DNA of 64,000 bases from a plasmid, in sequence record NZ_CP137560.1; one strand, 5' to 3'. Positions 2,552 to 34,910 of this stretch are shown here, piece by piece; within the stretch, counting starts at the first letter, position 1, and every line of letters begins with the position of its first letter. The notes under the pieces were generated by a model. That model was not told the origin of the DNA and did no database searches. It worked only from the letters and a program-made list of their open reading frames with translations. The translations under genes and the position numbers were made by a program.

Positions 2552-2738
2552 TAGAATAATGTTACATACATCCATCAACCTGCTGGTTTCAATTAACATC
2601 AAATGTAATGAAGAATATGTTTTTCAAATGTTCTTAGATGTGAGGGAAATATAATATACAGCTTTAAAGACTACTATCTGTGTTCAATGTAAATTTGAAC
2701 TAGATGGTAGTCTTTTTCAAACATTTTTTGGAAATCCA

Positions 2739-3470: not shown

Positions 3471-4182
3471 TTAAGTGAATACTTTGTTATTCAGCTTATT
3501 AAAGCCTTATAACTTATCGGGTACAAAGGTAGTGGGTATAGTTCTATCCACCAAAATTCGCAGAATTAATCCCCTAATTTAACACTTTTGAATGTTTTGG
3601 TCTGAAAGAGGGTGGCTATAAGTTTAGCAATATTTATTTGAACTACCCACAAGCTAAAGACTTGTGGGATTCCGACTTCTTCAAGGAATGTTTGCATGCA
3701 AGTCTTACGCACTCTCCATCGGTGTAATCGACAGTTCCTGCCGATATCCTTGAAGCTAAAGATACAATCTGCGCAGAATATGAGGAAGCTTGTAATAAGA
3801 AATTTGAAGAAGAGATAAAAACATTTATCAATACAAATTTCCAAGAGCAAAAACCAGAGATAGGTGACAACATTGTTTGTACCTTTAGTTACAATGGAGT
3901 TTTAATGTTAGTCCACCCTATGTGTTGTGATGGGGGAATGGAGTATTAAAGCTTCTGTTAAAGGAAACCAAGGAAGCATCAAACCTGCACAGGAATTGTT
4001 CAGAAAACTTAGAGGAAATACCAAAACTGGTTATTTATTAGTCTCAGAAGACACTGTTGCTTCTAAGATAGAACTGGCGTTATCCTTTTCTGACGGATAT
4101 GTAGGGAATCTTAAATAGCTAAAATTTGTCCCGAAGACATTTTTGCTCCTCTCTTTTGAGATTAAAGAGAGGAGTTATCTTT

Positions 4183-5316: not shown

Positions 5317-5787
5317 AAGTAATAAAAATGAATGAGAATGCCAAGCTTATAGCTAAGTTTTTATCCGTCTTACCCTCTTTGCCAGAATTCCTTTTTAACA
5401 ATCTGACTTCAAATCAGATCGTGAAGAGTCCGCAAACAACGGATGACCATGATATACCTTCCCTGATAAGGCTATTATCTTTGTGACGGGTTAGATCTCT
5501 TTTACAAATTAACTTCATGTCATGGGAGGCTATGGAAGTCAGTATGGGTAAAACTCGAACAGGAAAGTATACTGAAAGTGACATTTGCGCTTTTACGCAA
5601 GTGCAGTATGTAGTGTGCCTGCCAATACTGTTTTTTACTTATTCCTCCAATTATAGTTACCCTATGCGAGGGAAATCTTTTTCGTTTTATAGAAAATACT
5701 TTGAATCTAAACACGAAATAAGCTTTTTTTATATGGATTGAAAAGAAATAACCAAATAAGGGTGTGTCATAAGTCCATGACGCACCC

Positions 5788-8505: not shown

Positions 8506-8616
8506 ACTTGCTTTATGCGAAAGAGCAGATAGGGATGATTGCCAAAGCTATGGTAGGGACCATTATGACGAGGCAAGCATTTCCCTATCTGGAAGTTATA
8601 TGTTCTTTAAAACTTG

Positions 8617-9231
8617 CTAATTAGCATTCCCGGAAACGTTTAAGTCCCAAGGGCAGATGGTGGAAACACGACAACCTATCTGCAGACTGTTCTTATATAC
8701 GTCTAACAACAAATCACCATGAACTTCCACATACTCACCAGCCTTGGCTGCATAATCAAGGAATTGGTTCAAGGTGAACTTAACCCAAGTGAAGGCACGT
8801 TTTTCGCCATCCTTATCGGCAGAGAATGCAGAGAAAGTCTTGAACGTTCCGCCGTTCTTGGTAGGGTAGCTCTCCAAGCCTTTTTTGCCAATTTTACCCT
8901 TAAACTCCATCTTGCCCTCAATCTTGTCGGCCTGTGATGTATCATTCTCTTTGATATCACCTTCTGCTCTTAGATTATAGTAGAGGGTATCTTCTACTTT
9001 CTTGATGTAGAGATTGCCTTGGATGGTGACCTTTTTACCAGCTGCATATTTGGCTGCAGTTGACGCATTACCTTCGGTTGTTACACCAATATGGAGCTCT
9101 TTTACACTCTTGTCTCGTCCCTCTATAGGAACCACGATAGTGAAGGCGAGGAACTTGCCACCTTTCTTGTTAGTTTTTTCCTGGGCACTGCTTACAATGA
9201 TGCCACAGGCTGTGATGTTACATTTGATCAT
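8617..9231 (-). CDS. hypothetical protein (204 aa), two internally similar beta-rich halves, possible OB-fold/ssDNA-binding type
   Basis: Repeated pattern GKFLAFTIVVPIEG... and GEKRAFTWVKFTLNQ... No firm family assignment. Confidence 0.35.
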   Translation of the reverse strand: MIKCNITACGIIVSSAQEKTNKKGGKFLAFTIVVPIEGRDKSVKELHIGVTTEGNASTAAKYAAGKKVTIQGNLYIKKVEDTLYYNLRAEGDIKENDTSQADKIEGKMEFKGKIGKKGLESYPTKNGGTFKTFSAFSADKDGEKRAFTWVKFTLNQFLDYAAKAGEYVEVHGDLLLDVYKNSLQIGCRVSTICPWDLNVSGNAN

Positions 9232-9266
9232 TATTCTTAGTCTATTAAATGATGAATATTCAATTA

Positions 9267-10703
9267 TTACACTTGCTTGAGAGAATGCGTTTGCTTTTCC
9301 TCAGGACACTCTGTCTCAAAATAAGTACTTGCCTGGAGTTGGAGCTTGGATGCGTCCACTTTTTCCCTATCACGTTTTACTATATTTTCCTCATCCTTGG
9401 ACAGCGCCTGCTCATTTTCCTCTTGGATACGACTTGATGCTTTGATGGCCTCTGAAATCTTAATCCTTGCTGCTATTGTCAGCGCTGCTGAGAATAATGT
9501 TGAGATAAGTTCCGAGAAGGCATCCTGGTTATTATTCTGCTCACCATTCATCTCCTTCAAGCAGGAAAGCCACTTGGTGGGGTCGTTAGAGTTGGTTATC
9601 TGAGCCAACAGTTGTTTGGACATATCCGCCTGTGGATAAGTAACCGGCTGCTTGATATATTGAGAACGATACTCAGCGAGAATGTCTTTTCCATCCTTCA
9701 TGAGGGGTATGGAATTTCCAGTCTCGCCTTCAATGGCAGCAAGATACTCACGTGGGTCAAATCTTTCCCATTTACCCTGAGAGTTAAGCAACTTGGTCTC
9801 AAAGTGAAGGTGTGGTCCAGAGGAGCGGCCTGTATTGCCAGAGATACCAATCTGTTGGCCGGCTTGCACGATGTCGCCCTTTTTCACATCTCTTTTACTC
9901 AAATGCATATATACACATTGAAGTTTGCTACCGTCTTCTTTAGTATATTCGACCGTTATCATGTTACCTGTAGCATTGCCTTTACAGGAGGCGACAACCT
10001 TTCCGTTGTTCTCGGTGGCATACACGGGTAAGTTCTTGTGACCAGTGGCGATGTCTATACCTCCATGCAGATGGTCACCTCTGTTTTCCTTGAACAATCC
10101 TGTAGCTTTAAGCCCCTGCATGTTGATTGGAAGGGCACAAGAAATTGTTTGTATAGGAAGTGAGGCTCCCATATTCTGAGCAAAGCCTATGGTTTTACCC
10201 ATTTTTTGAGCATAATCCCAAGCCATTTTATCATATCTGTCCAAATGATATCTCTCAATTTCTCCCACCAGGGCTTCCTTATAGCTTGGATTACTAGCAT
10301 AGCCGCCTCTGCAAATACCATCCGCCCATCCCTTGTAATCGAGCGGGCTTCGTGCAGCGCAATACTTTTGGTATCGCTGCAGCATGAGAACCTTGGAGTG
10401 GTCTTCTACACTTGCCCTCACATCACTATATACCCTGAAAGGCTCTGGATATTTATGGTCATCCAAATGATAACTGACAGGTCCGTTCCAAGAACTTCCT
10501 TTTTTTACGCCAAAAAAGTTAGAGTCATTCCTGGCTAACTTAGATGTTCCGAAGCTGCTCTCAAATCCCATCTGTGCCAGGGTGATGGATGCTGGTATGC
10601 CATACTTGATCTGTTGTTCGATGGCCACCGCTGCATATTTTTCGTAAAATGCTTTTTTGTCTATTGCCATGTTACTATGATTTTGTTGTCCATGAGATGG
10701 CAC
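9267..10703 (-). CDS. peptidoglycan hydrolase: N-terminal glucosaminidase (FlgJ/mannosyl-glycoprotein endo-beta-N-acetylglucosaminidase-like) plus C-terminal M23 peptidase
   Basis: N-terminal GIPASITLAQMGFESSFGTSKLARNDSNFFGVK is a glucosaminidase signature. M23 motifs HLHGGIDIATG...GNTGRSSGPHLHFE are present. This domain pair is typical of conjugative-element lysozymes. Confidence 0.8.
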   Translation of the reverse strand: MPSHGQQNHSNMAIDKKAFYEKYAAVAIEQQIKYGIPASITLAQMGFESSFGTSKLARNDSNFFGVKKGSSWNGPVSYHLDDHKYPEPFRVYSDVRASVEDHSKVLMLQRYQKYCAARSPLDYKGWADGICRGGYASNPSYKEALVGEIERYHLDRYDKMAWDYAQKMGKTIGFAQNMGASLPIQTISCALPINMQGLKATGLFKENRGDHLHGGIDIATGHKNLPVYATENNGKVVASCKGNATGNMITVEYTKEDGSKLQCVYMHLSKRDVKKGDIVQAGQQIGISGNTGRSSGPHLHFETKLLNSQGKWERFDPREYLAAIEGETGNSIPLMKDGKDILAEYRSQYIKQPVTYPQADMSKQLLAQITNSNDPTKWLSCLKEMNGEQNNNQDAFSELISTLFSAALTIAARIKISEAIKASSRIQEENEQALSKDEENIVKRDREKVDASKLQLQASTYFETECPEEKQTHSLKQV

Positions 10704-10924
10704 GAGGCCAACCCTATGGACTTATATTATCGGTGAAAACCTCTGGAGGGGGTATTCTCCTTGACTTCTTCCTTTTCCTCTTTGACTGCAGGAATTTGTT
10801 CTTGCTTGAGATTCTCATCTGCCTTCACAGAGTTTTTTTGCTCCACTTGCACTTCCTTGTTGACTGTAGGGATAAAACTTACGGCTGCAACAGCTTTCTT
10901 ATAGGCTGCCATATCATCTGCAAG

Positions 10925-13900
10925 TCACAGATTATACCATTGTTGCTTAGAGATAGTCTGTCTCTTTTGTTCACCATCAATGGTGGCAATAACAACCTTC
11001 ACTTTAGGATTTTCCTTGTCTGAGGTAATTCTTACCTTTTCCACACGGCTCAAATCTATGCCTTTTGTGTTTGGCATAATGAGTTCCTGCTTGGAATCAG
11101 GATAGGTTGAAGCCATCTCATAATATTTCCGTGCCAAGGCATTATGCATCTGATTCTTATTTTCCTTGCCCATGACACTGAAATATGAGTTGAGATGTTC
11201 CTTCATCGGATAGACGGAGAAGGATGGCTCATTCTCAGGTTTAATAAAGAATGCATACTTGCCCATATGATCCTGGATTGCCTGGAACTTCAATATTTTG
11301 GTCTCTTGCTTCTCGTTGACCTTACTCGCCACATCAATAGTCTGGTTGGTAAGCAGCGTATATTGTTTGAGTCTGCTCACGGTAACCTCCTTGTCCTTGT
11401 AGTAGCTGTTTGGCTGTTTCAAAGCAAGGCTACCGCCTGCATTGTAGAAGCTCACCTCTTTGATTCCTTCTTTTCCAAGAGCGATACCAACACGTCTTTT
11501 ATTCATACCAGGAACCTCATTGTTTACCTGCAAAGATGCACCAGCAGGCAATATGACATCGGCGGTCTTGTTCTGTCTATCCATGACCACCACAAGTTCC
11601 TTGGTGTCAATGCTAGGTAACTTGTTGAGTTCACGAGATATGGAAAAATCATTAGAGCAAGAGAGCAAGTCTTTGTTAGGCAGTTCTCCCTTAATCGCCT
11701 CATAATTTACCTTTCTGCTAGCCATGAGGTTGTCAATGGTCTCAAGGGCATTGTTAACATCCCTCTCAAGGATACCTACCAGTTTGCTATTCTCCTTGAT
11801 TTCTCGCTCCCAGTAAGGAATCTGCTTTTGACTTTCTTGGGAGAAGGTAGCCGGTAATCCCTGACGAGCCATCATCACACCTGCCGTAAGTTCTCTGACT
11901 AGCAACTCATGCTTGGCATCATCAGCTGGCAAAAGATTATTTCTGCCTGTGCGGTCCAATCTATGTTCATGACCAGTAGAACCCACAACGGCACGATAGA
12001 TATCATTGGCTTTAAGGATGGCTTTAACCTCCTCATTACCGCCCTTTGGACTCATGCCGCTGACAATGATCTTGTCCTGGACTTTATCATATTGTGCATC
12101 TTGCAACACCATAACTCTCTCATACCCAATACCAGATGACTTCGCAACCTGCGATGCCGTTTGATAGGCAGTGGACAAGATTTTCTGAGCAGAAGGAACG
12201 TCCTTGCTCATCTTTGCGACATCTTGACCATCATTCATGGCAATGCGATTACCTGCTCTGATAAGTTTTGGCAAGCAATTATCCAATGCATGATAAGGAA
12301 AGGCTGCATAGCTTATCTTTTTTCCACCCACATCCTTGGTGGATGCAGGAAGGCCAAGGACTTTTCCCATCACATCTGCCTTCTCTCCATAAGTCTCATA
12401 GAAATCCTTGTTTCTGATGAGGATAATGGCATCAGGATGTTTCTTCTCTTGCTCCATGACATATGAAACGGCAGTCTCAGCAGAAAGCTCTTTTGCATGA
12501 TCTTTACTGAAATTCTTGATCTGCTCTCCTTTTTCACGGACCAAAGAGCCATAACCTTCCACATCATTTGCAGGCATGACCGTCTGGTCTATGTTATACA
12601 TATGGAAACGCTGACGAGTAGCATGAATCGCGTAATTGGTCTTTTCTGCATCACTCAATTCTGCATATTGCTCCTTTGAAATTGTATCGTTTGGATTAGT
12701 CACGTTTTGGTATTCCCATTTTGTCCAGTTGAAAGGCAATGATGTCTGTCCTCTCATCACCGGCATATCGTTATCCTTGGCAGGGTTAAAAGAGGTGTAA
12801 ACATTGGTCTTATAACCTTGCAAGTCAGAGTTCAAGTTCATCATCAGGTTGTTGAACGGCGTAATAGGCTTCTTGAAATGCAAGAACTCAGCATTGCTTT
12901 TACCCTTACCATTCATCCAAACTCCATCATGAGACTTGGCCATTTCGAGTGCACCAAGAAGAATGGATGCATGGGTAGCAGCTTTAGCTGTACTAATCTG
13001 TTCATCTTTAGCTGTCTCCTCACTTACCTTTGGTAAAACATCTTGCTTTGCCTCCTTTTCCACTTGGTGATAAGCTGCATGTTGCTCATCATCAGAGATT
13101 GCCTTGGCTTCTTTCTCAGCCACGTGCATAGGTACTCCAGTGTGGGCAATCTGTTCTGCTTTACCTGCAACATCGGTTTGGATGTTACTATCCTCATGGG
13201 CCGGCTGTTCTTCTTGATGTTGAGAGTTCTCTGGCTTTTCCTCCATAACCGCTTCTTCCTCAACCGTCTGATATTCGGGCATTTCAGAAAGGTTATCAAT
13301 GACAGCATCCAAATTTCTCTCCCAAGTAGCTCCATGATCATATGGGAAACTGTGCTTTACCATGAGTCCGATATTGCTCACGGTACCCACGTCAATGGAA
13401 TCCTTCTCCTTGTTATATTCAAAATGAAGGAGGTCTCCATTTGGCATGGTGAATGCAGGTGTTTTATCTCTGAGTTTTAGTGTCATCTCTTCCTCGGCCA
13501 TGTTCTTGGCTACCTCCACTACTGCTTCAGAGGCATCTTTCTCCAATCCATAGCTATCGATGGACATTCTCAGATCATTCTCACTCACTCTGCGAAGTAG
13601 TTCATAGGTACCACCCACACTGTTGTTATATACTACTGCGTAGTTTTCATTTTCCGCTAACAAGCTATCACCTGAATTACTTGTTGCACTTTTAGTGATT
13701 TGGGACTGTGTTAGAGCATCACCAGGGTCATACTCTTGAGCCAGATTGAGCAACTGATCCCATTTCTCTTTAGTATTCAAGTCATCGAACTCCTGAGTAT
13801 CATCAGTACTCTGCAAATACTGGTATGAGAAGTAATACGGCTTACCCTGTTGAGTATCCTTTATTTCATGCGAGTTATTCTTAGAATCGTTCATATTCTG

Positions 13901-15301
13901 TTCTTTGTTCGTATTTTGTTCTGTCACTATGTTTGGAAGAAGGGAAGCTCCTGCCGTCAAAAGCTGCTCATCTGTAGCATTTTGAATCCATGAGCCAAAT
14001 ACTTCATGCTCCTTATAATAGTCTCGCAGTTCTGATAGACTTTTGACCTGTAAGACGGTATGCTCACTGTTCTTGTCAGAAACTATGTTATGGATAAGTG
14101 CCGTAAAATGGTTCTCAGCTGGACTGACCGAAGATACTTGTGTTTCTTGTGGGGCATCTTTTTCCTGAGAAATCTGGTCAAGTTTGATTTGCTCAAACTG
14201 TTCCTTATTCTTGAGCTGTTCCTCAATACCATCGAGGTTACCTTCCATAAGTGGCTTTTCACCCAACTTTACCTTCTGCTTATCAATCTCTTCCAAAATC
14301 ATTCGAGAAGCCTTGTTGACATCGGACATGACTGTGACGATATACTTTGGCTCTTCACGCAATTTTTGTATCCACCAATCTACATAAGCTGCATTATTGT
14401 CTGAGATTCTATTGGAAAATCCCATCGCATTGCCGATGACAAAGGCAGTAGTCTCTGCCACAAGTTCTTCTTTAGCATATTCCTGCGAACCGAACTGAGC
14501 TTCTGGCAAACGGTCAAGTCTACTAGAATGTCCCGTGGAGTGCGCCATTTCGTGCATAGCAGAGGAATAATACTCCTGTCCATCCATGAAGATTTCCTCA
14601 AGTTCATCGTGAATGTTGAACTGTGCCTTCATAGGCACCACAATAGAGTCTTTCTTCGCATTGTAAACAGCTCCCTTTGCCTCTTGATCCACTTGGATAG
14701 GACAAAGCCATTCCTGTTTGTCAAACATACGATCAAGAGCTTCATTCTTATACATACCCTTATCATCCTTGATAGGCGGGAATTGGAATCGGGAGAGGAT
14801 GGCTTGGTATTTCTCGTTATTATCCTCTTCAAAAGTGGTTTGGTCTATGTTCCATTCGTTGAAAACCTTCAAATAGGGACGTACTTGACATTTGTTTTGC
14901 TCATCCTTGGATAAGTCACGAAAAGCATCCTCAGACAAACGCTTTCCATTTTCATCCTTGATATTGAGTCCCCACTTGAATACAGGAACAGAATGCTCAC
15001 CTTTTTTTATATGAACACCATTCTCCTTCATCTGTGTTCTCGTCATGTAGACTGGAACATGGAAACCCCTCATGGAAGTGTGAACCTGAAGCAAAAAGGC
15101 ATTGCCACCTACATAAGTTCTGCCAGTGATGTTCTGCGGAAGGCCACCAAAGCCATGTGAACCTTCTGTCCATCCTTGTTCCCAGTCCTTTTTTTTGCTG
15201 TTTTCCAAACGCTGAATCATCAGGTCGGCGAACTTTTGGATGGCACGGTCGATTCGGGTGCCTTCCGTTTCCTCTTGTTTGTTGATTTCTTTGTTATCCA
15301 T
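10925..15301 (-). CDS. ArdC-like (DUF1738 ssDNA-binding plus zincin-like HExxH metallopeptidase) giant conjugative-element protein, 1458 aa, with a second ArdC-N-like repeat
   Basis: N-terminal ...GGNAFLLQVH...HVPVYMTRTQMKENGVHIKKGEHS matches the ArdC N domain. HEMAHSTGH is a zincin motif. A second ArdC-N-like segment (NNLMMNLNSDLQGYKTNVYTSFNPAKDNDMPVMRGQ) follows. Confidence 0.7.
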   Translation of the reverse strand: MDNKEINKQEETEGTRIDRAIQKFADLMIQRLENSKKKDWEQGWTEGSHGFGGLPQNITGRTYVGGNAFLLQVHTSMRGFHVPVYMTRTQMKENGVHIKKGEHSVPVFKWGLNIKDENGKRLSEDAFRDLSKDEQNKCQVRPYLKVFNEWNIDQTTFEEDNNEKYQAILSRFQFPPIKDDKGMYKNEALDRMFDKQEWLCPIQVDQEAKGAVYNAKKDSIVVPMKAQFNIHDELEEIFMDGQEYYSSAMHEMAHSTGHSSRLDRLPEAQFGSQEYAKEELVAETTAFVIGNAMGFSNRISDNNAAYVDWWIQKLREEPKYIVTVMSDVNKASRMILEEIDKQKVKLGEKPLMEGNLDGIEEQLKNKEQFEQIKLDQISQEKDAPQETQVSSVSPAENHFTALIHNIVSDKNSEHTVLQVKSLSELRDYYKEHEVFGSWIQNATDEQLLTAGASLLPNIVTEQNTNKEQNMNDSKNNSHEIKDTQQGKPYYFSYQYLQSTDDTQEFDDLNTKEKWDQLLNLAQEYDPGDALTQSQITKSATSNSGDSLLAENENYAVVYNNSVGGTYELLRRVSENDLRMSIDSYGLEKDASEAVVEVAKNMAEEEMTLKLRDKTPAFTMPNGDLLHFEYNKEKDSIDVGTVSNIGLMVKHSFPYDHGATWERNLDAVIDNLSEMPEYQTVEEEAVMEEKPENSQHQEEQPAHEDSNIQTDVAGKAEQIAHTGVPMHVAEKEAKAISDDEQHAAYHQVEKEAKQDVLPKVSEETAKDEQISTAKAATHASILLGALEMAKSHDGVWMNGKGKSNAEFLHFKKPITPFNNLMMNLNSDLQGYKTNVYTSFNPAKDNDMPVMRGQTSLPFNWTKWEYQNVTNPNDTISKEQYAELSDAEKTNYAIHATRQRFHMYNIDQTVMPANDVEGYGSLVREKGEQIKNFSKDHAKELSAETAVSYVMEQEKKHPDAIILIRNKDFYETYGEKADVMGKVLGLPASTKDVGGKKISYAAFPYHALDNCLPKLIRAGNRIAMNDGQDVAKMSKDVPSAQKILSTAYQTASQVAKSSGIGYERVMVLQDAQYDKVQDKIIVSGMSPKGGNEEVKAILKANDIYRAVVGSTGHEHRLDRTGRNNLLPADDAKHELLVRELTAGVMMARQGLPATFSQESQKQIPYWEREIKENSKLVGILERDVNNALETIDNLMASRKVNYEAIKGELPNKDLLSCSNDFSISRELNKLPSIDTKELVVVMDRQNKTADVILPAGASLQVNNEVPGMNKRRVGIALGKEGIKEVSFYNAGGSLALKQPNSYYKDKEVTVSRLKQYTLLTNQTIDVASKVNEKQETKILKFQAIQDHMGKYAFFIKPENEPSFSVYPMKEHLNSYFSVMGKENKNQMHNALARKYYEMASTYPDSKQELIMPNTKGIDLSRVEKVRITSDKENPKVKVVIATIDGEQKRQTISKQQWYNL

Positions 15302-25367: not shown

Positions 25368-25964
25368 TTATATTTTTAGATTGAGCTTTTCAGGATAGCC
25401 CGTCTTGTAATCATAGGCTTTCACCTCTTCGATGGTCGTCAACTTATTAACCTCTGCCTGATGAGTTGCGGTCACATTGTAGCAATCTTTTGCATACACC
25501 TCAATAGTACAGATAAGGTCTTGAGCCGCTGCGATGGGCATGACTAAACACTTTCCATCAAGCCAGAGACTCGTTTCTTCTCGACCCTTATAAGCAATTC
25601 TCTCATTACCGGCAAATACACGATCTCTCAGGTTGAAGTCGAGCCAGTGCTGCTCCCCGTTAAGGTAAAACGCATTGACGGCAGGAGATTTGTCGTAGGC
25701 AGTAATCTCTGCTATCTTATCAGCCTTTGCCTGTTCAAGTTTCAGTGCATCCATCTTAACCGAAAATTCAACAAATGCCTTCTGTATTTCTTCCTCGTCA
25801 AAGGCAGAAACTGCCATGGAGCACTCATAACATTCGTATGCGCCTAATTCCTTATTAAGCGCTTCCCCGATATGATAAATCATCAAGCTTCCAAGCTCAT
25901 ATTGCTTTTTGAAAGCTGCTTCCGGGATAATTGTCCTAATAAAATTAATCTTCATAATCGACAT
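25368..25964 (-). CDS. hypothetical phage protein (198 aa)
   Basis: Clean ORF between the RT and the lysis genes. Confidence 0.45.
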   Translation of the reverse strand: MSIMKINFIRTIIPEAAFKKQYELGSLMIYHIGEALNKELGAYECYECSMAVSAFDEEEIQKAFVEFSVKMDALKLEQAKADKIAEITAYDKSPAVNAFYLNGEQHWLDFNLRDRVFAGNERIAYKGREETSLWLDGKCLVMPIAAAQDLICTIEVYAKDCYNVTATHQAEVNKLTTIEEVKAYDYKTGYPEKLNLKI

Positions 25965-25972
25965 TTTTATAA

Positions 25973-27130
25973 TTAAACCTTAAATTTATTCATAATCTTG
26001 ATAACCTTCATATTCTTACAATAGAGTCTGTCTTTGTGTGGCATCATCATCCAGGCTTTGCGCCTTATGTGATAGCTGTCACAATAGGCAAGCAGTCCCA
26101 TCAGACTATTGATGCGTCCGACGTATCGTTTTAAGACCTGGCTCGTGGGATTTTCGATCATCCCGAGCTCGTCTATCACGGCATACAGTCGTTCCACTGT
26201 CTGTCTGTTAGGAACAAGTCTGTGAGGTCTTATCATCGTGCCGATGAATCGAACGCCATTGCTCACTCTCTGCAAGGAGATTTTGCGAGGATGTAGCGTC
26301 AATCCTAATTCGTCTCTCAGATATATCCTGCCATCTTGCAGGATGCGATGAAGCAGTCTTCTATCCCTGTTGATGACGATGAAGTCGTCGACATATCTGC
26401 CATATCCACCGTCCGTACCCACCGCCGAGACCATCATCTTATCGAAGTCGGACAACAGCAAATTGGCAAGCAACTGACTTGGAAGATTACCGATAGGAAG
26501 GCCCTTATTCTTGTCACATGTGAACAGCGACTTATTTTTGGGCAGTATATCGAATAACTTCAGGTTGCCGGTCTTGACGCAGTTCTTTGTTGGATCATGC
26601 AACACCACTATCTTCCACAACCATAGCCACCACTCGATATCCTTACCACGATACTTCGTCCTAATCAGCCGTTCCAGTTTGTCATATAACATTTTTCTAT
26701 CGATACTCATGAAAAAGCCCTGAAGGTCGCACTTAAGAACCCAAGCCTCCCGAGTATAGCCTTCGCTCACCCGTTCCATCTGGGCCTTAACCTGCTCGAC
26801 ACCGTAAAGAACACCCTTACCTTGCCTACAAGCAAATGCGCTATCGGTCAGTTCGTCCTCAAGAATATCTCCAAACTTCAACGCAAGAAGATGATGCACG
26901 ACTCTGTCGCGGAAATGAACACAGAACACCTCCCTCAACTTTGGACGAGTCACACAGAAAGCCTTGCTTGGACCTATCTTGTAGGTCAGCCGGTTAAGGT
27001 CTGCGTACAGCTGATAGTTGTTGATTATCGCCTCTGCCTGATAGCTTACACAATCGTCGGTCGAAGTCTTATGCTTGCAGCAGTCGATATACGCCTGTCT
27101 AATATCCTCGATGGAGACATACTCTTGCAT
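25973..27130 (-). CDS. diversity-generating retroelement reverse transcriptase
   Basis: Motif LPIGNLPSQLLANLL is the DGR-type I/LGxxxSQ that replaces QGxxxSP. YGRYVDDFIVI is the YxDD catalytic motif. Size is about 385 aa. Sits next to a TR/avd/VR set. Confidence 0.9.
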   Translation of the reverse strand: MQEYVSIEDIRQAYIDCCKHKTSTDDCVSYQAEAIINNYQLYADLNRLTYKIGPSKAFCVTRPKLREVFCVHFRDRVVHHLLALKFGDILEDELTDSAFACRQGKGVLYGVEQVKAQMERVSEGYTREAWVLKCDLQGFFMSIDRKMLYDKLERLIRTKYRGKDIEWWLWLWKIVVLHDPTKNCVKTGNLKLFDILPKNKSLFTCDKNKGLPIGNLPSQLLANLLLSDFDKMMVSAVGTDGGYGRYVDDFIVINRDRRLLHRILQDGRIYLRDELGLTLHPRKISLQRVSNGVRFIGTMIRPHRLVPNRQTVERLYAVIDELGMIENPTSQVLKRYVGRINSLMGLLAYCDSYHIRRKAWMMMPHKDRLYCKNMKVIKIMNKFKV

Positions 27131-27197
27131 GATAATTTGATTGTTAGATATACAGAAGGATGGCGAAAAGAATCGGGCATCATCAATATGTGATAAT

Positions 27198-27289
27198 CGA
27201 AAACTGGCAGTACGACGTTGCTGTTCGTCTTGTTGTTGTTGTTCGCACCACTGTTGTAGATCCAGGCGTTACCAGCGCCGTTCTGCGTT
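27198..27289 (-). repeat. DGR template repeat (TR)
   Basis: 92 bp aligning with 27881-27972. The 8 mismatches are at 27225, 27239, 27242, 27243, 27261, 27282, 27288 and 27289. All are T on the + strand, i.e. A on the sense (minus) strand. Lies between avd and the RT gene. Confidence 0.85.
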
Positions 27290-27402
27290 ACCGATGCCTT
27301 CTCCCTTTAAGGTCTGACCACTTCTTCTGAAGAAGTTGCGTGGCGGCATCCCTTGTCATCATCTGATGGCGGCACTCCCACGTTGCCTTAGCTTCGTGGC
27401 TC

Positions 27403-27759
27403 TCACCTCTGCGAAGATCCGAGAGAACTCCTTCGCCATCCGTATGCAAATTGTAGCAGCCTGTCTGTGAGTTTCGTCAGGTTTGTGGCCTTTCGAACAT
27501 CAAGATAGGCGAGGTCGTCGAAAATGCCGACGAATGTGCGTATCTCCCGGACAATCATGATATACTCGTCTATATATTCCACACGTCTTGCCATGCTGCC
27601 GTTTGCCAGATACACCAAGTCCAAGGCTCTTGCTGACTTCTCTGTCATCCGTTCGTAGATACCATATCTCACCACCTTGCTAACATTCCTTCCGTATTCC
27701 AACAACAGCTTGCAGAGCAAGCGTGTATCCTTGTATATTCCCAATCCTTCCGCTAACAT
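27403..27759 (-). CDS. accessory variability determinant (Avd)
   Basis: 118 aa, predicted helical and basic. In the canonical position between the target gene and TR-RT. Confidence 0.7.
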   Translation of the reverse strand: MLAEGLGIYKDTRLLCKLLLEYGRNVSKVVRYGIYERMTEKSARALDLVYLANGSMARRVEYIDEYIMIVREIRTFVGIFDDLAYLDVRKATNLTKLTDRLLQFAYGWRRSSLGSSQR

Positions 27760-27869
27760 CCTTCTGTTTTATTTATGTTAATTAATTCACTAAAATTCAC
27801 GCCCCTTGCCGTTGCCTCTTTTTACTCCTTAGTGAGCTGGGGTTGTCAAGAGGTAAAGAGGCGAAGAGG

Positions 27870-29627
27870 TCAAGGGCAAGCGAAAACTGGCAGTACGACG
27901 TTGCTGTACGTCTTGTTGTTGCTGCCCGCACCACTGTTGTAGACCCAGGCGTTACCAGCGCCGTACTGCGAACTGGTCCATCGCCAATTGCTCATGACGA
28001 ACTTGTAGTAGGCGTTTCCCACGTCCTCGCCATACAATATGGTCAGTATCTGTTTGATAGGACTCGCATTCGCCATGTGGATAAATTCCTGTCCTGCCGA
28101 CATTTTGAACCCATGCAGCTCCTGACCACCAATACTGAATATCTGGTTGTAGGCGTAGTCTGCCGCCGGCACGGAAAGGCTTCGCTCCTGTGCCTCCTGC
28201 CGGATGAGAAAAGTGCCCGACTCGCCATTGTAGTAGTTGGCGTCTGAGCTAACATTGCCGTTTGAGGCGATGCTTGTAAACAGCAGCTGCTGTGTACACC
28301 ATGGCAGCTTGGGCAACTTGGACATATTTCTAAGGTCGGAGGTTCTAATCATGAACGTACCCTTATTGATCATCAAGGTGGAGTCCGCCACCTTTAGTGC
28401 CACAACATCCTCGCTGTCTCTGCCAGTCGCGACCCAACTGTCGATGTAATACTCGTTGAGATCACCATCCACTACAAAGACGCCTGCCTTAAATTGATAC
28501 ATCCTGTAATCCAATAATCTTTGCGGAACCGCCGCCGTGTAGGTCCTTGTGTTTTTGTTGAAACTGACATAGTAACCTTCTTGATTCTCGACCTTGACGG
28601 TATATTCCTTGCCGTAAGGCACATAGACTGTCACCTGTCCCTTGCTGTCAGAGTGATACTCAACGATCTTCTTGTCATAGGTTACCGACACAGGGATACC
28701 CTCGTAAGCGACGGCCTGGTTGTCTGCCCCATACTTGGTGACCGTCACCACCACCTTCTCACTTGAATCCTCGTCGTATGGCAGATAGCTTAGGTTAATA
28801 TCTCGACTCTCCAATACGGCGGTGAATCCCACAGGAGAGATTGGCTGCGCATTTCCATACTGAGGCACGCTCAGTTCATAATACTCACCTCTATGAACCT
28901 TGAAAACAGCCTTGCCATCATCATCGGTAACGAACGTCTGCGGCGTGGTGCCGTGGTTGTATCTCACAGCTATCGAGATGCCGCCTACCTTTACGCTCTC
29001 CACCGACGAAGTGATTGTCACCGTCACCACCTCATCGATGTCGCCCAAGTTGATACTCTTCACCTCCCCTTGCCGGTTGGTCACGGTAAGCACGTGATCA
29101 ACGAGGTCTGCGTTGACATTCTCGGCTGCCGACAGGGCGGTCTTGGCGTTCTTCGAAGCCTCGCTCGCTGTGTCCGCCGCTCTCTGAGCTGCATCCACAA
29201 GTCCTTTCGCCTGCGAGATGAGTTGCTCTAATTCCACGCTTGGAGGCAGTATCACCAAGGAGGTGTCCATCTCTACGCTGTTGTCTCCTTCGTCAGTTTC
29301 TCCAAACTCGGTGTCGCCGTCCTTATTGTACTCCACGATGGCTATCTGCTCGTATTCCTTGCTCTGCCATGCGTTGCCCAATTTTCTGCCGCTCACCACG
29401 AGCGAATAGACATCCTTCTTAACGCGGTCGCCCTTTACTTCAGCGATGATTACGTTGTCGTGCTCAATGTCGAGCGTGTAGGCGAGGGTAAGGATGGAGA
29501 AGCTGCCCACCAGCTGCACCTTAATGTCAGTACACCCTGTCAATGGGAACGGCACGATGTCGCCGTTTACTTTCTTCGACACCGGAATCTTCAGTGCGAA
29601 GTCATTTCCTTTCACTATTTTTTTCAT
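27870..29627 (-). CDS. DGR target protein, tail-fibre/receptor-binding-like, with a C-terminal variable C-type-lectin-like region
   Basis: The VR occupies the last about 30 codons (...WTSSQYGAGNAWVYNSGAGSNNKTYSNVVLPVFACP). The rest of the protein is beta-rich. Confidence 0.8.
   Translation of the reverse strand: MKKIVKGNDFALKIPVSKKVNGDIVPFPLTGCTDIKVQLVGSFSILTLAYTLDIEHDNVIIAEVKGDRVKKDVYSLVVSGRKLGNAWQSKEYEQIAIVEYNKDGDTEFGETDEGDNSVEMDTSLVILPPSVELEQLISQAKGLVDAAQRAADTASEASKNAKTALSAAENVNADLVDHVLTVTNRQGEVKSINLGDIDEVVTVTITSSVESVKVGGISIAVRYNHGTTPQTFVTDDDGKAVFKVHRGEYYELSVPQYGNAQPISPVGFTAVLESRDINLSYLPYDEDSSEKVVVTVTKYGADNQAVAYEGIPVSVTYDKKIVEYHSDSKGQVTVYVPYGKEYTVKVENQEGYYVSFNKNTRTYTAAVPQRLLDYRMYQFKAGVFVVDGDLNEYYIDSWVATGRDSEDVVALKVADSTLMINKGTFMIRTSDLRNMSKLPKLPWCTQQLLFTSIASNGNVSSDANYYNGESGTFLIRQEAQERSLSVPAADYAYNQIFSIGGQELHGFKMSAGQEFIHMANASPIKQILTILYGEDVGNAYYKFVMSNWRWTSSQYGAGNAWVYNSGAGSNNKTYSNVVLPVFACP
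27881..27972 (-). repeat. DGR variable repeat (VR) at the 3-prime end of the target gene
   Basis: Cognate of the TR. Differs only at TR-adenine positions. Confidence 0.85.
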
Positions 29628-29645: not shown

Positions 29646-32600
29646 TTATGGACGATAATTCATGAATTGCAGTTGCCAAGCCCCACGGATAAAAACAAGG
29701 ATAGTAAACTGTCCTATCGTTCCCGAATAGAATCTATTGCCGGTATCGTATCTCGTCTGACCACCCCAATATATCGTATCGCCTTTAGGAGGAACGATAT
29801 ATACCCTTTTGTCATTACCTTGAATAATTATCAGCGTCTGACCATCAACAGGATTGGCAGGAAGTGTTAACGTCATATCAGAAGGATTTGTGCAAATAAC
29901 GATTCCGACGCCGTTTGATATTTGCTGAGTATCACTAATAATCTCTGTGTTCGGTGCTAACGCTCCTCGTATAGCGCCGTTTGTCTGTATAGCCGTTGGT
30001 GTACCCGAAAAACCCTTGGCAATAACATTTATAGCCAACGCAGGCGACTCTTGTTTACTCTGTTCAGAATAAATATACTGCACTGGTTCGTATTGGGTAT
30101 TATAATCATAATTTGTTGGAAGATTTACGTTGTTTACCGAACCTTTACAGACAATTCTTGCAGCATCTCCAAACCACACGGCATTAAAATAATTTAGAGT
30201 TGACTGATATGAAAACTCCGTACAGGACGCACCTACGCGAAAATAAGCAGTATTAGGTGAACCACCTCGGACAAATAACGGGCAATACTGAATACCAGTT
30301 ACAACAGTTGCACCATTATATTCTGTACACTCCGCTTGCATAATATCCCCCCAATTATCATCCTTTTTAATGCTCCATATTCCGATTTTGCTATCTCCTG
30401 TGACATTAAGCTTAGTAGCTGTAATCACCTGAGCATTGATACCTTTAGCTACGACGTCTCCTGCGTTGATGAATTTCGCATTGAGCTTTCCATTTTGAAA
30501 CATAGCAGCTTCGTCATAACCCTCTGAAGGATTGGCTTTCGGGGTTTTTACCTGTACTTTGTTTCCGTACAAGGTAACTTGGTCGCTCGTAATCTCTATA
30601 CCTGCTGCCTTCAGGCTCGCCTTATCCACAAGGTCACTTTTGCGCTCGGTGTATTCGGTAACAACCGCACCAGCTTCGAGCTTCGGCTGAGCAATGTAGC
30701 AGTTAGTTATAGGTGCATCACCTTCGCTGCTCTGTATCGTTCTGTTGAGTCTCAAAAGGACATACTTGTGCGAGCTGTCTGATGGTCGCCAATGTACCCA
30801 ATATTTTTTCCAATCGCTCGTCAGTTGGAAATTTGCTGCTCCATCTACTCTCGTAGCTGTTTCTCCTAAAGAGCTCTCAACGAATACGTCTGTCTCAGGG
30901 CTGTAGAAGTATGCTGTCAACTTACCAGTTCCCTTAGCCATGAACGAGAAAACGTAATCCTTGTTAGCCTCCAAGCCGAAAGGAACGAATCCCCCCGATT
31001 CTAATTTTCTCCATTCAAGAACATTATAATAGTAATCATTACCGACACTCTCAAACTCGCTGCCGTTGTACCTGTAGCATATTTCGGTATTACGTACACA
31101 GTATGTATCACCATACACGTTTCCCGAAGATGGGAGCTGGCTAAAGCTATTAACAGTTCCTTTCAGCACATAAGAGAACGACTTGTATATAGACGTGCTC
31201 TCGCCAAATCCTGCTGGAGTCAGCGAACCGTTAACATCGTATAGTGTACCCGACTTATCGAGCGACAATGTATTATCGAGCATGTTGCCACCTACGTAAT
31301 CGTAATCCTCTGTCGATAGCGTCCAGCCATTATAGGTATCGCCTTCCTCGACCATCGGGCGACAAATCCAAGCTTCAATACGACCATAATTGCCGTTGTT
31401 ATATTCAAAAAAGTTGAAGGCAATATAGTCATACTCCGCATCGGTTGTATCTATAATCGCCACGAATAATTCCCACTTATTCGCACTTTTGCAACGGAAA
31501 GAACTATTTGTGAGATATTTTGGACCTCCCATTCTTTGCGCGTTCGTCTGCTTGTCTGTATATAATGCTTCAAGGCAAAAGATTCCATTTGTGTCATTCG
31601 TCTTACAATAGCATGATATAACGTACTTCTTGCCCTTTGTTATCTTCACACTCTTACCTCCTTGCGAACCATCCCAGAAAGCGCCACAATAATGCGGTGT
31701 CCCATCCGTATCATCAATAATCTTGGCGCAGTTTGTACCCTGATAGCCAGAATTTATCTCGATACTTGCGGCATAGTTTAGAATACGATTATTATCATCA
31801 CGCAGGAACGCACTACCTATAAGTAGGTTTCTTCTGTCGATTATCTTCTCGCTTACCGAAAGTGAGATTTCCCTTGCGGTCTGCTCAAATTTCGACGTTG
31901 CGTCCTCCAGCTCGTCTTTAGTTGCAGCATTCTTTGACAATTCATCAAATTGTATCTTGTAGCTCTTATTATTAACAACCACAGAACCCGTAAACTTCGC
32001 AACATTGACCTGTACGTTGACCGTAGCCCACACAAGGGTGCTCCGTTCTCCGAACACATCAATCGGGAACGAAATCTGTCCGCTCGACTTGCTTACCATT
32101 ACATCTTCGCTAATAGTTTCCGTCCCTATGCTTGAGATGGTAATTCTTGCCTCTCCATCAACATTAGAAATATCACCTTCCACGTTTGTGGATTTTTTCG
32201 TCTCATGATTACTTGGAAGAGAAAGATTATTTGCACTTATCTTTTGATTACCCTTATAGACAGTCACAGTCGCATATTTACCGCTTAATGTAGCTGAATC
32301 AACAAGACCGTTATCGTCTGTATCGAACACGAGGGTGGCTGGAGATACTTCTACTCTGTAGGCATCCTCGCCAGGTGTACCATCCTCGCCTGTTATCTTC
32401 ACAGGTTCTGACCAAGGAAGTACAGCCTTTCCGTCTTTCAAAGTGGCTTGGCTCATCCACACCGTAGATGGCATAGAGACGAGATTGTCGGATAGGTCGA
32501 AGCGGAATAAGCCATAGTCTCCGTTGCTATTACCACTGCTGTCCTTACAATAGGAGACATAGAAGAAATGCTGTCCTGCCGTAGTGACATGGTAAGAATA

Positions 32601-34910
32601 TGAAGTTTCTATTCCATTACCAGATATATATGCAACACCCTTCTTTTGAAGGTTGTTTGAACCAGTTATCTCTGTATCAAGTTCATGAACTTGAACGAAG
32701 TCAAAGTTAGCCTCGGAATAAGCCTTAATAACAGCATTAACGTCCAAATTATCTACATTTGTAGAGAAAGACACTTTCATTATTGCCCATCCATAGCTAT
32801 CAGACAACCCAGCAGGAGATTTTCGCCATGTTTCTCCACTATCAGAAACTTCCGACCACTCCGAGGTACTATATCCGCTCGTAGTGCTATCGACGCTGTA
32901 ATTTCCGTAGCTAACGTTGCTCACCTTGTTATAAGACCCACCTTCCCGAGGTGTGCGAGACCATCCGCCAGACAGCTGAGACAAATCTTCAACGGTTGGT
33001 TTTGAAGGTTGAGACGTAGCGTTTTTGTATGCCATGACCACACCCTCACCGCTCTGACCGAGAGTAAACGAGGCAGCAGCGAGCTTTGTCGTATGATTTG
33101 CATCATCATACAACTCGACGGTAATGTGAGATTTCCCTTCTATCTCGGAAGGGAAAGCGTTATAAATGTCAATATAACTAACATTACTACCATTAAGTCT
33201 GTTGGTCATGCCGTCACTCACTGCGTCATCAACATAAACAACACAGCTACTATCAGGGAGTCCTATCTGTTCCCTCGTGCCGCTCGTAATATCTGAGCCA
33301 ACAGACTTTGTATAGGTTACATACAAAACCTTTCGGTCTGCACCAGCAATACTTCGTGACGCTGTGTACAACTGGATTCCGTAAGATACAGCATCATCAC
33401 CTTTCTCGCCCTTACCTCCGACAAGAACCTTTTTCCAGTTAGGCGAGCTATCTAAAGGCTCATCGGTGACACCAACACCAGAGTTGGCAACACATACCCA
33501 CACGGCATTATCATGATTTACTTGGTCGTTCTTGTGGTAGGTGTTTCCGTCCACCCAATCGCCACGATAGTTGATGATGTTGATAGTGCTGCCATCATCG
33601 GAAATCCACTCGAAACGAGAAGAATTGATTTTCGTTCCTCCTTTTGGAGAGGTCTCAAACACCGACAGAGACACCTCTTTATCACTACCATTTACACTTT
33701 TCGTAAAAGTATGCTTATATTCTGTGATATTGGCAAAACAAGCGATACGAGGGGCATAGTCACCCGTAGTCTCTAAGACGATTACATTCTGTCTGTCCGT
33801 CTTGTCGTATTCCTGCTGACCATTACGATGTCTGTTTCCATCAAGCACGATTGTGTCACCCTCGGCAGGAATGCCTTTTGTCTCAGTAGGTGCTTTATCC
33901 TCTGTAGTATATCCGTCGATGTCTTCAGAATGCTTACCTATGACAATCCATGCGAACGCCTGCCCATCATACAGTTCCACCTGCACTTCCCTTGTCTGCT
34001 CGTTGCCATCCTCATCGCGATAAGTCTCCGTCTTAGTGCCGTATATCTTCTCGTTCTGCGTAGATATACCACCATCAGGGATAGTTCGCCAGTAGCTCTT
34101 GTTGCTTGCATCGTTGTACGTTCCACCAGACGTAATTTCGCCAATAGTCTTGCAGCGCACTTGGTCCCCCTCCTGCCAGTAATTCATCGTAGCAGTAGTT
34201 CCGTCGTCAGCCAAGAGATAGCACTTCCAGCCAACGCATTCCGCATCATCCTCAGTTGTTTCTACCCAAGTTTTCACACCACCATCCGATACCGATTGCT
34301 TGACAGGCACAACCTTGATAAGCTTGCTGCCTGCGCCCGATAGATAGATATTGCCTCCCGAATAAGACAGTTTACGCACCTCTAACTCATGGAATATCGC
34401 CTTGCCCCAAATGGTGAGGTTGGAGAAGAAGGCATGATACTTGCCACTCTTCTCCTTCTCGATAGAAAAACCCTGCTCAGCCGCATTATCGTAATCAATG
34501 GATTTGATAGCGTCAAACACCGCTTCACCCAGCTTAGTAATCTTTGCATTATTGCCGAACTTTGCGCCCATCATTAAATCTGCAAGACCTTTAGCAATAA
34601 GACCTTTCGCAAAGATCACCATACCCTTTACTACCTGAGGATCCACAGTATCTTTCAGACTCAAATACTGCTGTAATATTTCCGCATCCTCATGAAGGTT
34701 GCCCGCCTCAGAGGCGTAGACTGCATTCTGTGCCGATGCAGCCGTACCTGCATAGGTTGCCTGATCTGCAACTTCTGCCCGCTTGGTCTTATCAGCCCTG
34801 GCAGCGTGCTCAGCTTCAGATATAACTCCGGATATATACTTAGTCGAGGAAGATGATCCGGACGAACCTCCCGTCTTCTTTGGCTTGGCAAAAGTCTTAA
34901 TTTCTATCAT
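29646..34910 (-). CDS. giant tail fibre / host-specificity-like structural protein (1754 aa)
   Basis: Multi-domain beta-rich protein with a short collagen-like GGKGEKGDD stretch. Positioned in the tail module downstream of the tape measure protein and the 906-aa tail protein. Confidence 0.55.
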   Translation of the reverse strand: MIEIKTFAKPKKTGGSSGSSSSTKYISGVISEAEHAARADKTKRAEVADQATYAGTAASAQNAVYASEAGNLHEDAEILQQYLSLKDTVDPQVVKGMVIFAKGLIAKGLADLMMGAKFGNNAKITKLGEAVFDAIKSIDYDNAAEQGFSIEKEKSGKYHAFFSNLTIWGKAIFHELEVRKLSYSGGNIYLSGAGSKLIKVVPVKQSVSDGGVKTWVETTEDDAECVGWKCYLLADDGTTATMNYWQEGDQVRCKTIGEITSGGTYNDASNKSYWRTIPDGGISTQNEKIYGTKTETYRDEDGNEQTREVQVELYDGQAFAWIVIGKHSEDIDGYTTEDKAPTETKGIPAEGDTIVLDGNRHRNGQQEYDKTDRQNVIVLETTGDYAPRIACFANITEYKHTFTKSVNGSDKEVSLSVFETSPKGGTKINSSRFEWISDDGSTINIINYRGDWVDGNTYHKNDQVNHDNAVWVCVANSGVGVTDEPLDSSPNWKKVLVGGKGEKGDDAVSYGIQLYTASRSIAGADRKVLYVTYTKSVGSDITSGTREQIGLPDSSCVVYVDDAVSDGMTNRLNGSNVSYIDIYNAFPSEIEGKSHITVELYDDANHTTKLAAASFTLGQSGEGVVMAYKNATSQPSKPTVEDLSQLSGGWSRTPREGGSYNKVSNVSYGNYSVDSTTSGYSTSEWSEVSDSGETWRKSPAGLSDSYGWAIMKVSFSTNVDNLDVNAVIKAYSEANFDFVQVHELDTEITGSNNLQKKGVAYISGNGIETSYSYHVTTAGQHFFYVSYCKDSSGNSNGDYGLFRFDLSDNLVSMPSTVWMSQATLKDGKAVLPWSEPVKITGEDGTPGEDAYRVEVSPATLVFDTDDNGLVDSATLSGKYATVTVYKGNQKISANNLSLPSNHETKKSTNVEGDISNVDGEARITISSIGTETISEDVMVSKSSGQISFPIDVFGERSTLVWATVNVQVNVAKFTGSVVVNNKSYKIQFDELSKNAATKDELEDATSKFEQTAREISLSVSEKIIDRRNLLIGSAFLRDDNNRILNYAASIEINSGYQGTNCAKIIDDTDGTPHYCGAFWDGSQGGKSVKITKGKKYVISCYCKTNDTNGIFCLEALYTDKQTNAQRMGGPKYLTNSSFRCKSANKWELFVAIIDTTDAEYDYIAFNFFEYNNGNYGRIEAWICRPMVEEGDTYNGWTLSTEDYDYVGGNMLDNTLSLDKSGTLYDVNGSLTPAGFGESTSIYKSFSYVLKGTVNSFSQLPSSGNVYGDTYCVRNTEICYRYNGSEFESVGNDYYYNVLEWRKLESGGFVPFGLEANKDYVFSFMAKGTGKLTAYFYSPETDVFVESSLGETATRVDGAANFQLTSDWKKYWVHWRPSDSSHKYVLLRLNRTIQSSEGDAPITNCYIAQPKLEAGAVVTEYTERKSDLVDKASLKAAGIEITSDQVTLYGNKVQVKTPKANPSEGYDEAAMFQNGKLNAKFINAGDVVAKGINAQVITATKLNVTGDSKIGIWSIKKDDNWGDIMQAECTEYNGATVVTGIQYCPLFVRGGSPNTAYFRVGASCTEFSYQSTLNYFNAVWFGDAARIVCKGSVNNVNLPTNYDYNTQYEPVQYIYSEQSKQESPALAINVIAKGFSGTPTAIQTNGAIRGALAPNTEIISDTQQISNGVGIVICTNPSDMTLTLPANPVDGQTLIIIQGNDKRVYIVPPKGDTIYWGGQTRYDTGNRFYSGTIGQFTILVFIRGAWQLQFMNYRP

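Follow-up and report, generated by a model that had tools for sequence, protein, structure and literature searches.

Does the plasmid record NZ_CP137560.1 carry a complete diversity-generating retroelement (DGR), and if so, which protein does the element diversify, and on what kind of phage? The question arises from a 64,000-nucleotide (nt) stretch of this record, hereafter the window, in which a reading of the letters alone (the original prediction) had placed a DGR at positions 25973-29627. To our knowledge, adaptive immunity aside, DGRs are the only known natural means of hypermutating proteins in a targeted way. Phages of gut Bacteroidales carry them very commonly, but few DGRs have been assigned to a defined combination of phage, target and host. 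We consider it highly probable that the window holds a complete DGR on a Mu-like transposable, siphovirus-type prophage, and that what this element diversifies, over roughly the last 25 codons, is the C-terminal domain of a virion protein resembling a fibre. Systems of this kind are well known; here one occurs in a phage lineage that has not been described before and is separate from Hankyphage. Mildly new are the phage lineage itself, the very divergent Avd, and a target domain family that lies outside current domain libraries.

The cassette consists of the following features, each given with its coordinates in the window (ORF, open reading frame; aa, amino acids).

27870-29627, minus strand: DGR target gene, 585 aa, with an N-terminal beta-sandwich, a coiled coil at about residues 133-167, Ig-like beta domains and a C-terminal VR domain of about 185 aa
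27881-27971, minus strand: variable repeat (VR), codons 553-582 of the 585-codon target gene, differing from the template repeat at adenines of the latter only
27403-27759, minus strand: avd (accessory variability determinant), 118 aa, divergent
27198-27288, minus strand: template repeat (TR), intergenic between avd and the reverse transcriptase gene, 91 nt, with 29 adenines and nine AAC codons in the VR frame, near-invariant in relatives
25973-27130, minus strand: DGR reverse transcriptase (RT), 385 aa, intact ORF

The ORF coordinates agree with the order target-avd-TR-RT on the minus strand that had been proposed.

Adenine-specific differences between the repeats

Minus-strand positions 27198-27289 and 27881-27972 align without gaps over 92 columns with eight mismatches, and the minus-strand base of the TR is an adenine at every one of them (8/8). 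The VR has G where the TR has A at 27239, 27242, 27243 and 27261, and T at 27225, 27282, 27288 and 27289; these are exactly the eight coordinates, and the replacements of adenine by T or G, listed in the original prediction. The extent of the repeat needs a small correction. Homology ends abruptly at the 5' edge, position 27290 and everything upstream being unrelated between the copies. Column 27289 is T in all related VRs and probably lies outside the repeat; at column 27288 related VRs have either A or T, with both occurring inside lineages, and this column probably lies inside. With 27289 placed outside and 27288 inside, the TR is best taken as 27198-27288 (91 nt) and the VR as 27881-27971, with seven adenine mismatches, six certain and one probable (27288). 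Thus, the alignment behind the predicted 92-bp TR with eight mismatches stands, and its length and mismatch count each drop by one. Similarly, the VR is C-terminal as claimed but, at codons 553-582, falls within the last 33 codons of the target rather than the last 30.

The pair is recovered by a second, independent repeat finder, which returns the same TR and VR at an offset of 683 nt. The TR is overlapped solely by short unsupported ORFs and is taken as non-coding, and the VR lies in the 3' end of the target gene. When the TR was used as a pattern with every A replaced by N, two sites in the 64-kb window matched, the TR and the VR themselves, compared with 0/100 for shuffled versions; a further VR elsewhere in the window is thereby ruled out. 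Under random placement, the probability that all mismatches fall on adenines is 6e-4 for 6/6 in the unambiguous 90-nt core, 1.9e-4 for 7/7 and 6e-5 for 8/8. The defaults of DiGReF are at least seven adenine substitutions and at least ten adenines in the TR (PMC6199706); this pair, with seven substitutions and 29 TR adenines, is at the threshold.

Relatives of the cassette extend these counts. We compared the window with the cassette from ten further distinct loci at the DNA level (11 loci, 90-nt core) and found that TR/VR mismatches fall on TR adenines in 69 of 70 cases, as A>G, A>T and A>C changes; the binomial P of ~8e-36 is indicative only, the loci being related. Lineage-specific TR substitutions to a non-adenine base also occur in the VR of the same locus without exception (46/46). 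Taken together, the adenine mismatches and the mirrored substitutions are the footprint expected if the TR has been copied into the VR repeatedly, in one direction only and with errors specific to adenines. All mismatches are at adenines in L002 and L003, whose RT is 56% identical (7/7), and in L015, a Leyella stercorea isolate whose target is 61% identical (10/10); in L021, a Bacteroidales metagenome-assembled genome (MAG) with a target 30% identical, the count is 13/14.

Across relatives the VR varies while the TR is near-invariant. In an alignment of the query with 80 homologues (81 proteins), the ten columns of highest entropy in the whole target (555, 559, 562, 564, 568-571, 574 and 576) all lie within the VR and are all AAC or ATC codons in the TR frame, and the mean entropy is 0.81 bits over residues 546-585 against 0.16 for the rest. 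The original prediction had proposed looking in metagenomes for VR variation confined to adenine codons, and this is what the ten columns and the conserved TR display. Information flows from TR to VR, and hypervariation is restricted to the VR, across the phage lineage. Within the closest group, 93-95% identical outside the VR, there are 16 proteins, each with a different VR, which implies recent activity in the lineage, where the DGR is probably active. The claim of a complete DGR with adenine-specific differences is thus borne out by the parts, the mismatches and the variation among relatives.

In the close family one mismatch alone does not fall on an adenine, a G>C change adjoining two mutated adenines (TR GCGAAC, VR GCCCTC), present in the VR of L001 and L012 (IMGVR_UViG_3300045988_168398; ERZ1031885 NODE-92); a multi-nucleotide error at a site of mutagenesis may account for it. 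Some TR adenines are never or rarely changed in the 11 loci (window positions 27205-27284): those of CAG554, AGT565, AGC575, GTA578 and CCA580, the first A of AAC564 and both As of AAG572. At the protein level K572 is kept in 79 of the 81 sequences and S565 in 80. These fixed adenine codons suggest that scaffold residues are under purifying selection; for AAG, a change into a stop codon is also possible.

Three relatives depart from the rule in other ways. In L010 (contig OIXQ01000142.1) the TR at 6844-6933 is identical to the VR at 6158-6247 over the 90-nt core, and the TR has AGC at five codons where its sister locus L011 has AAC, so that mutable adenines are lost. This TR looks as if it had been overwritten by VR-type sequence, through gene conversion in the reverse direction or else as an assembly artefact. 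The RT frame is interrupted in L005 (6490-7648; 199+192 aa) and in L006 (6499-7656; 112+268 aa), compared with 385 aa in the window. Their VRs still differ from the TR at adenines only, and their target proteins (P0018 and P0065) recur unchanged on eight contigs each; these VRs may have become frozen once the RT was lost.

At the 3' end of the repeats the two copies part sharply, and two features of the VR side are relevant here.

27870-27899, minus strand: VR 3' end with VR-specific flank, candidate element resembling the initiation of mutagenic homing (IMH) site and candidate setter of transfer direction
27800-27882, minus strand: imperfect inverted repeat from the VR 3' end, with an inner stem of GCCTCTTT (27855-27862) and AAAGAGGC (27814-27821)

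Both repeats share GTCGTACTGCCAGTTTTCG at the 3' end, after which the VR side continues with CTTGCCCTTGA and the TR side with ATTATCACATA. Adenines of the last 19 shared nucleotides are unmutated in the 11 loci (0/4 at 27211 and 0/11 at 27205), and the VR-specific and TR-specific flanks are each conserved across relatives. The boundary therefore matches the look of an IMH/IMH*-type boundary, and by analogy with phage BPP-1 it may play the IMH role. The inverted repeat is present in relatives, its inner stem kept mostly via wobble pairs and several outer pairs broken, with a folding z-score of only -1.1. This repeat might serve target recognition, as a hairpin or cruciform, or might act as a terminator.

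Reverse transcriptase, Avd and the proposed cycle

The RT matches Pfam RVT_1 at 2.6e-14 and phrog_1423 at 4e-76. Its best match among solved structures is the Bordetella RT, bRT (8ub7, 1e-25), compared with 7e-9 for group II intron RTs. The IGNLPSQ motif, with SQ for SP, and the YVDD motif, both of which had been noticed before, are located at residues 213-219 and 246-249. The former fits the DGR RT signature, [I/V/L]GxxxSQ in place of QGxxxSP (PMC7826257). Residues R66 and I213 align, in a HMMER alignment, with bRT R74 and I181, which promote adenine mutagenesis (PMC7826257). By signature motif, YxDD and best PDB match, the enzyme is assigned to the DGR clade. NCBIfam models of group II, retron and Drt enzymes all score far under their cut-offs on this protein, the top (sub-threshold) match being a group II intron RT at 85.9 bits against a 300-bit cut-off; together with the bRT best match, these scores rule out a group II intron, retron or defence RT. 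A look-up of protein records for the exact RT sequence returned no identical entry, and the RT query against genome contigs found no relative.

The 118-aa ORF matches phrog_3206, 'Avd protein of DGR', at 2.2e-8. The AlphaFold2 (AF2) model of this protein is a four-helix bundle with a predicted local distance difference test score (pLDDT) of 86.9. The top Foldseek matches of the model, with template modelling (TM) scores of 0.75-0.83, are 2gsc (Xcc0516), 2rld (BT_0352, of the 23S-IVS family), and two entries of Bordetella Avd, 4dwl and chains B-E of 8ub7. Profile-profile comparison (hhalign) with the Avd of phage F2, which itself matches Pfam bAvd at 4.7e-36, gives an E of 2.9e-4 over 110 columns. 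Because of the PHROG match, the predicted fold and the gene position, we identify the ORF as Avd, and with it the accessory gene of a DGR is present.

The canonical DGR cycle is established for Bordetella phage BPP-1, and since all parts here are homologous with those of that system, we propose the same mechanism for this cassette. An RT-Avd complex would bind a transcript that reaches from the avd 3' end through the TR into the beginning of the RT gene. The RT would copy the TR into complementary DNA (cDNA), with misincorporation specifically opposite template adenines, and the cDNA would take the place of the VR in the 3'-terminal part of the gene for the 585-aa target. Transfer would run from TR to VR only, its direction probably being set by the VR-specific 3' flank. 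Nine AAC codons, one ATC and one TAC would be rewritten while scaffold residues stay fixed; at these eleven hypervariable codons, ~6e11 protein variants are possible by our arithmetic (15^9 x 4 x 4). The most likely use would be to adapt adsorption to variable surface structures of Bacteroidales hosts. The TR is separated from the RT start codon by only 67 nt, so that any RNA element in the spacer must overlap the RT coding sequence.

The target protein and the weighing of alternatives

The target gene follows the tape measure gene and two large ORFs of the tail module, at the distal end of that module. An AF2 model built from a 36-sequence alignment has moderate confidence for residues 1-100 and 170-360, and its N-terminal part is beta-rich with a coiled-coil segment. 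Local structural matches of this part are to BppU-N, tail-collar and minor tail proteins; coming from a low-confidence model, they are a lead only. The target has no function-assigning family in PHROG, Pfam or NCBIfam, Pfam at any threshold returning noise alone (SoxE, alanine zipper), and tblastn against 50,697 phage records gave no match. In metagenomes it has 2783 homologues. A search of 1.84 billion representative proteins places the C-terminal domain of about 185 aa in only 126 clusters, in each case at the very C-terminus, and proteins that carry it also have Ig-like, collagen, fibritin_C and tail-fibre-repeat domains. From the gene position and the domains of these family members, we infer that the target is a fibre-like virion protein. 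It had been claimed that the phage diversifies the receptor-binding tip of a tail-fibre-like protein, and on the same two grounds this is a reasonable reading of what the protein may do.

A more specific proposal for the VR domain comes from profile-profile comparison. No match to Mtd was found with hhalign. Against the target family of the F2 DGR, all members of which carry Pfam Lcl_C/DUF1566, the domain aligns over 111 columns with a probability of 81.7% and an E of 1.1e-5, and the aligned stretch includes the C-terminal motif W-[ST]-S-[ST]...AW...K...V-x-P. The VR domain is most likely a diverged lectin-like ligand-binding tip on a phage fibre. A more far-reaching reading, which we put forward as doubtful, is that the 185-aa domain represents a previously unclassified DGR scaffold, either a strongly diverged Lcl_C offshoot or some other fold, working with a divergent Avd in an undescribed Mu-like phage lineage of Prevotellaceae or Bacteroidales.

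Related targets differ in length between the two ends. The sister target proteins P0081-P0120 have 742-773 aa and a collagen triple-helix insert (PF01391), and are otherwise 73-76% identical over the aligned 76-77% of the query; the L002 target, of 689 aa, has a long coiled-coil insert instead. As judged from these alignments, the putative fibre shaft is modular, with the N-terminal anchor and the C-terminal VR domain kept.

Several results weigh against the reading of a complete, working DGR with a lectin-like fibre tip: (i) The target model is unusable after residue 361, the C-terminal 225 residues having pLDDT <40. (ii) Neither Pfam nor the PDB sequences (profile search, 0 hits) yield a match to the C-terminal domain, and its lectin-like fold is suggested by one moderate profile-profile match. 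(iii) The Avd reaches only E 0.13 against Pfam bAvd, which is sub-threshold; its sequence and profile have no match among PDB sequences, and hhalign against Bordetella bAvd itself gave none. (iv) A convincing conserved hairpin after the VR was not found when folds were scored (z -1.1) and relatives compared, and the 160 nt after the TR have no conserved RNA structure (consensus -2.2 kcal/mol). (v) Rfam returned nothing meaningful on the cassette. (vi) At least two related loci have an interrupted RT, so that some family members are frozen.

Could the repeat pair instead be an ordinary duplication shaped by drift or gene conversion, with an adenine bias arisen by chance and an RT belonging to a retron, a group II intron or a defence system? 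The window alone has only 6-8 mismatches, and the closest NCBIfam model is, as noted, that of a group II intron RT. Even so, the window alone gives a P of ~6e-4 to 6e-5 and the family one of ~8e-36 (69/70 at adenines), and the variation is one-sided, with a variable VR and a conserved TR. The RT's 85.9 bits lie against a 300-bit group II cut-off and its retron and Drt scores far under theirs, its best PDB match is a DGR bRT, and the Rfam search of the cassette points to neither an intron nor a retron. We give this explanation next to no credence, and it is already refuted by the population data. A silent relic, that is, a real DGR whose VR differences were written in the past and which no longer works in this copy, is distinctly improbable in our view. 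L005 and L006, with interrupted RTs, adenine-only differences and targets unchanged across contigs, provide precedents for it, as does L010, in which TR and VR are equal and adenines have been lost, and Hankyphage appears defective in laboratory conditions (PMC12135933). The window itself presents a different state: the RT (385 aa, with YVDD and IGNLPSQ), Avd and target ORFs are intact, the TR retains its 29 adenines and nine AAC codons, and the relatives 93-95% identical with a different VR each indicate recent activity in the lineage. This particular copy would therefore be expected to remain active.

It is unlikely, to our minds, that the DGR is active but acts on something other than a host-receptor-binding fibre, such as another adhesin (a mucus- or glycan-binding fibre) or a protein of the lysogen. 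The silence of PHROG, Pfam and NCBIfam as to the target's function leaves room for such a role, its structural matches derive from a low-confidence model, and the preceding 1754-aa ORF could itself be the main fibre; for the lectin-domain target of Hankyphage, Benler et al. proposed mucus adherence (PMC6199706). The location of the gene at the distal end of the tail module, the phage-fibre modules of family members (collagen, fibritin_C and tail-fibre repeats) and an N-terminal domain that looks like a virion-attachment module, common to many Bacteroidales phage proteins with other C-termini, argue for the fibre, and the experimentally studied phage DGRs of BPP-1 and Hankyphage target tail fibres (PMC6199706, PMC12135933). 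We therefore retain a virion fibre as the probable location of the target and a host surface structure as its presumptive ligand.

The prophage and its known counterparts

A Mu-like prophage of ~42 kb (window ~20-62 kb) carries the cassette, at the distal end of its tail module. Its transposition genes encode a MuA-like transposase (phrog_310, 3e-54), a MuB-like DNA transposition protein (phrog_296, 1e-34) and an ATPase, and there is a CI-like repressor (phrog_4, 8e-27). MuF-like head morphogenesis families match a 471-aa ORF. Also present are a portal protein, TerL, a protease, a major capsid protein, a major tail protein, a tape measure protein and two very large tail-module ORFs, and the genes after the DGR encode an amidase and a peptidase. 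With MuA, MuB, a CI-like repressor and MuF all recognised by sequence family, the prophage is classed as a Mu-like transposable phage, and the Mu-like context of the original prediction holds.

DGRs on temperate Bacteroidales phages, Mu-like ones included, have been documented and shown to be active (PMC6199706, PMC12135933, PMC8143477). The cassette resembles that of BPP-1 (mtd-avd-TR-brt) in the order target-avd-TR-RT, the VR at the 3' end of the target, the adenine-only mismatches, the [I/V/L]GxxxSQ and YxDD motifs with equivalents of R74 and I181 in the RT, the Avd fold (4dwl, 8ub7) and AAC as the main mutable unit. It differs in that RT identity is ~27%, the Avd has no sequence-level similarity to bAvd, and the target domain has no detectable similarity to Mtd. 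The TR there is 134 nt (PMC6199706), compared with 91 nt and a 67-nt TR-RT spacer here. BPP-1 is a podovirus of Bordetella, whereas the phage here is a Mu-like siphovirus of Bacteroidales.

Hankyphage p00 (BK010646) is closer in general design, being a Mu-like transposable temperate phage of gut Bacteroidales of ~42 kb. The layout is the same, with MuA, MuB and ATPase, then MuF, portal and TerL on the opposite strand, the tail module, and at its distal end a DGR whose target is a fibre-like protein encoded there. However, megablast of 28 kb of the prophage against the 50,697 phage records, among them BK010646, gave no match to it. By tblastn, 12 of 29 proteins match at 27-59% identity, and MuA, MuB and MuF are homologous; at E<=1e-3 the major capsid protein, protease, tail proteins, target, Avd and RT have no match in p00. 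The TR and VR of Hankyphage are 116-117 nt long and unrelated in sequence, and its VR lies at residues 2188-2225 of a giant ORF of ~2245 aa (PMC6199706), whereas the target here is a separate ORF of 585 aa. The genus criterion for Hankyphage is an intergenomic similarity >70% (PMC12135933). Identity with Hankyphage is ruled out by the lack of nucleotide similarity and by the unrelated DGR proteins and TR. Thus, the likeness to Hankyphage, which the original prediction had cited as a described Mu-like Bacteroides phage with a DGR, is one of syntenic layout; close kinship is not supported, given a backbone of 27-59% identity and DGR parts that find no match.

Among deposited phage genomes, siphophages F1, F2 and F4 of Bacteroides uniformis (PMC8143477) have the closest RTs, at 36-38% identity. 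F2-type phages share the order target-avd-TR-RT followed by an amidase, the Lcl_C (DUF1566) domain of the F2 target aligns with the VR domain here, and 13 of 14 mismatches in F2 are at adenines. They carry an integrase-type recombinase, in contrast to the Mu-like transposition here. The F2 target is 253 aa long and reaches Pfam Lcl_C at 2.6e-8, just under the cut-off, compared with a domain family here that has no Pfam match; the two Avd proteins contrast in the same way in their scores against Pfam bAvd (4.7e-36 and 0.13, respectively).

Understanding of how DGRs work is unchanged by this cassette. It adds a clean, compact example, with a 585-aa target, a 91-nt TR and plentiful metagenomic relatives that display the footprint of diversification. 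The target domain lies outside Pfam, and annotation pipelines that rely on lectin-domain models would miss this class of target. Family members in which the RT is broken or the TR eroded are naturally occurring candidates for controls, and a cultured relative exists in Leyella stercorea isolate MSK.21.24 (NZ_JAHQUY010000011).

Genome matches of the target family are to Leyella stercorea, Prevotella MAGs, Barnesiella and other Bacteroidales, and the lineage appears in human gut metagenomes, including Hadza samples. The host clade, as judged from relatives, is probably Prevotellaceae within the Bacteroidales, a more likely host clade than Bacteroides. Megablast of the cassette and 24 kb of prophage against the 50,697 phage records gave nothing but one 183-nt fragment, and the TR pattern with every A replaced by N found no exact relatives in viral contigs. 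IMG/VR holds a near-identical uncultivated genome of 39,959 bp with an RT 95% identical.

Two further ORFs adjoin the cassette.

25368-25964, minus strand: conserved ORF, 198 aa, directly downstream of the RT, DGR membership uncertain
29646-34910, minus strand: ORF of 1754 aa, immediately upstream of the target

The 198-aa ORF has no match in Pfam, PHROG or NCBIfam, and a homologous ORF follows the RT in L002 and in L004-L006; possible roles are those of a DGR accessory not yet recognised, a chaperone for the fibre, or a lysis protein. The 1754-aa ORF has no match in PHROG or Pfam, its C-terminal part is conserved in L002, and the protein is a probable main tail or central fibre.

The prophage flanks (179-15301 and 62839-63600) carry genes typical of Bacteroidales conjugative transposons, together with defence and anti-defence genes.

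179-2551: GmrSD-type restriction enzyme
5788-8505: anti-restriction-like protein, 905 aa
9267-10703: glucosaminidase with M23 peptidase
10925-15301: protein of 1458 aa with ArdC-N, MPTase-PolyVal and MutS_I
62839-63600: DUF4138/TraN-like protein

These neighbours make it look as if the phage had inserted itself by transposition in, or next to, a mobile element.

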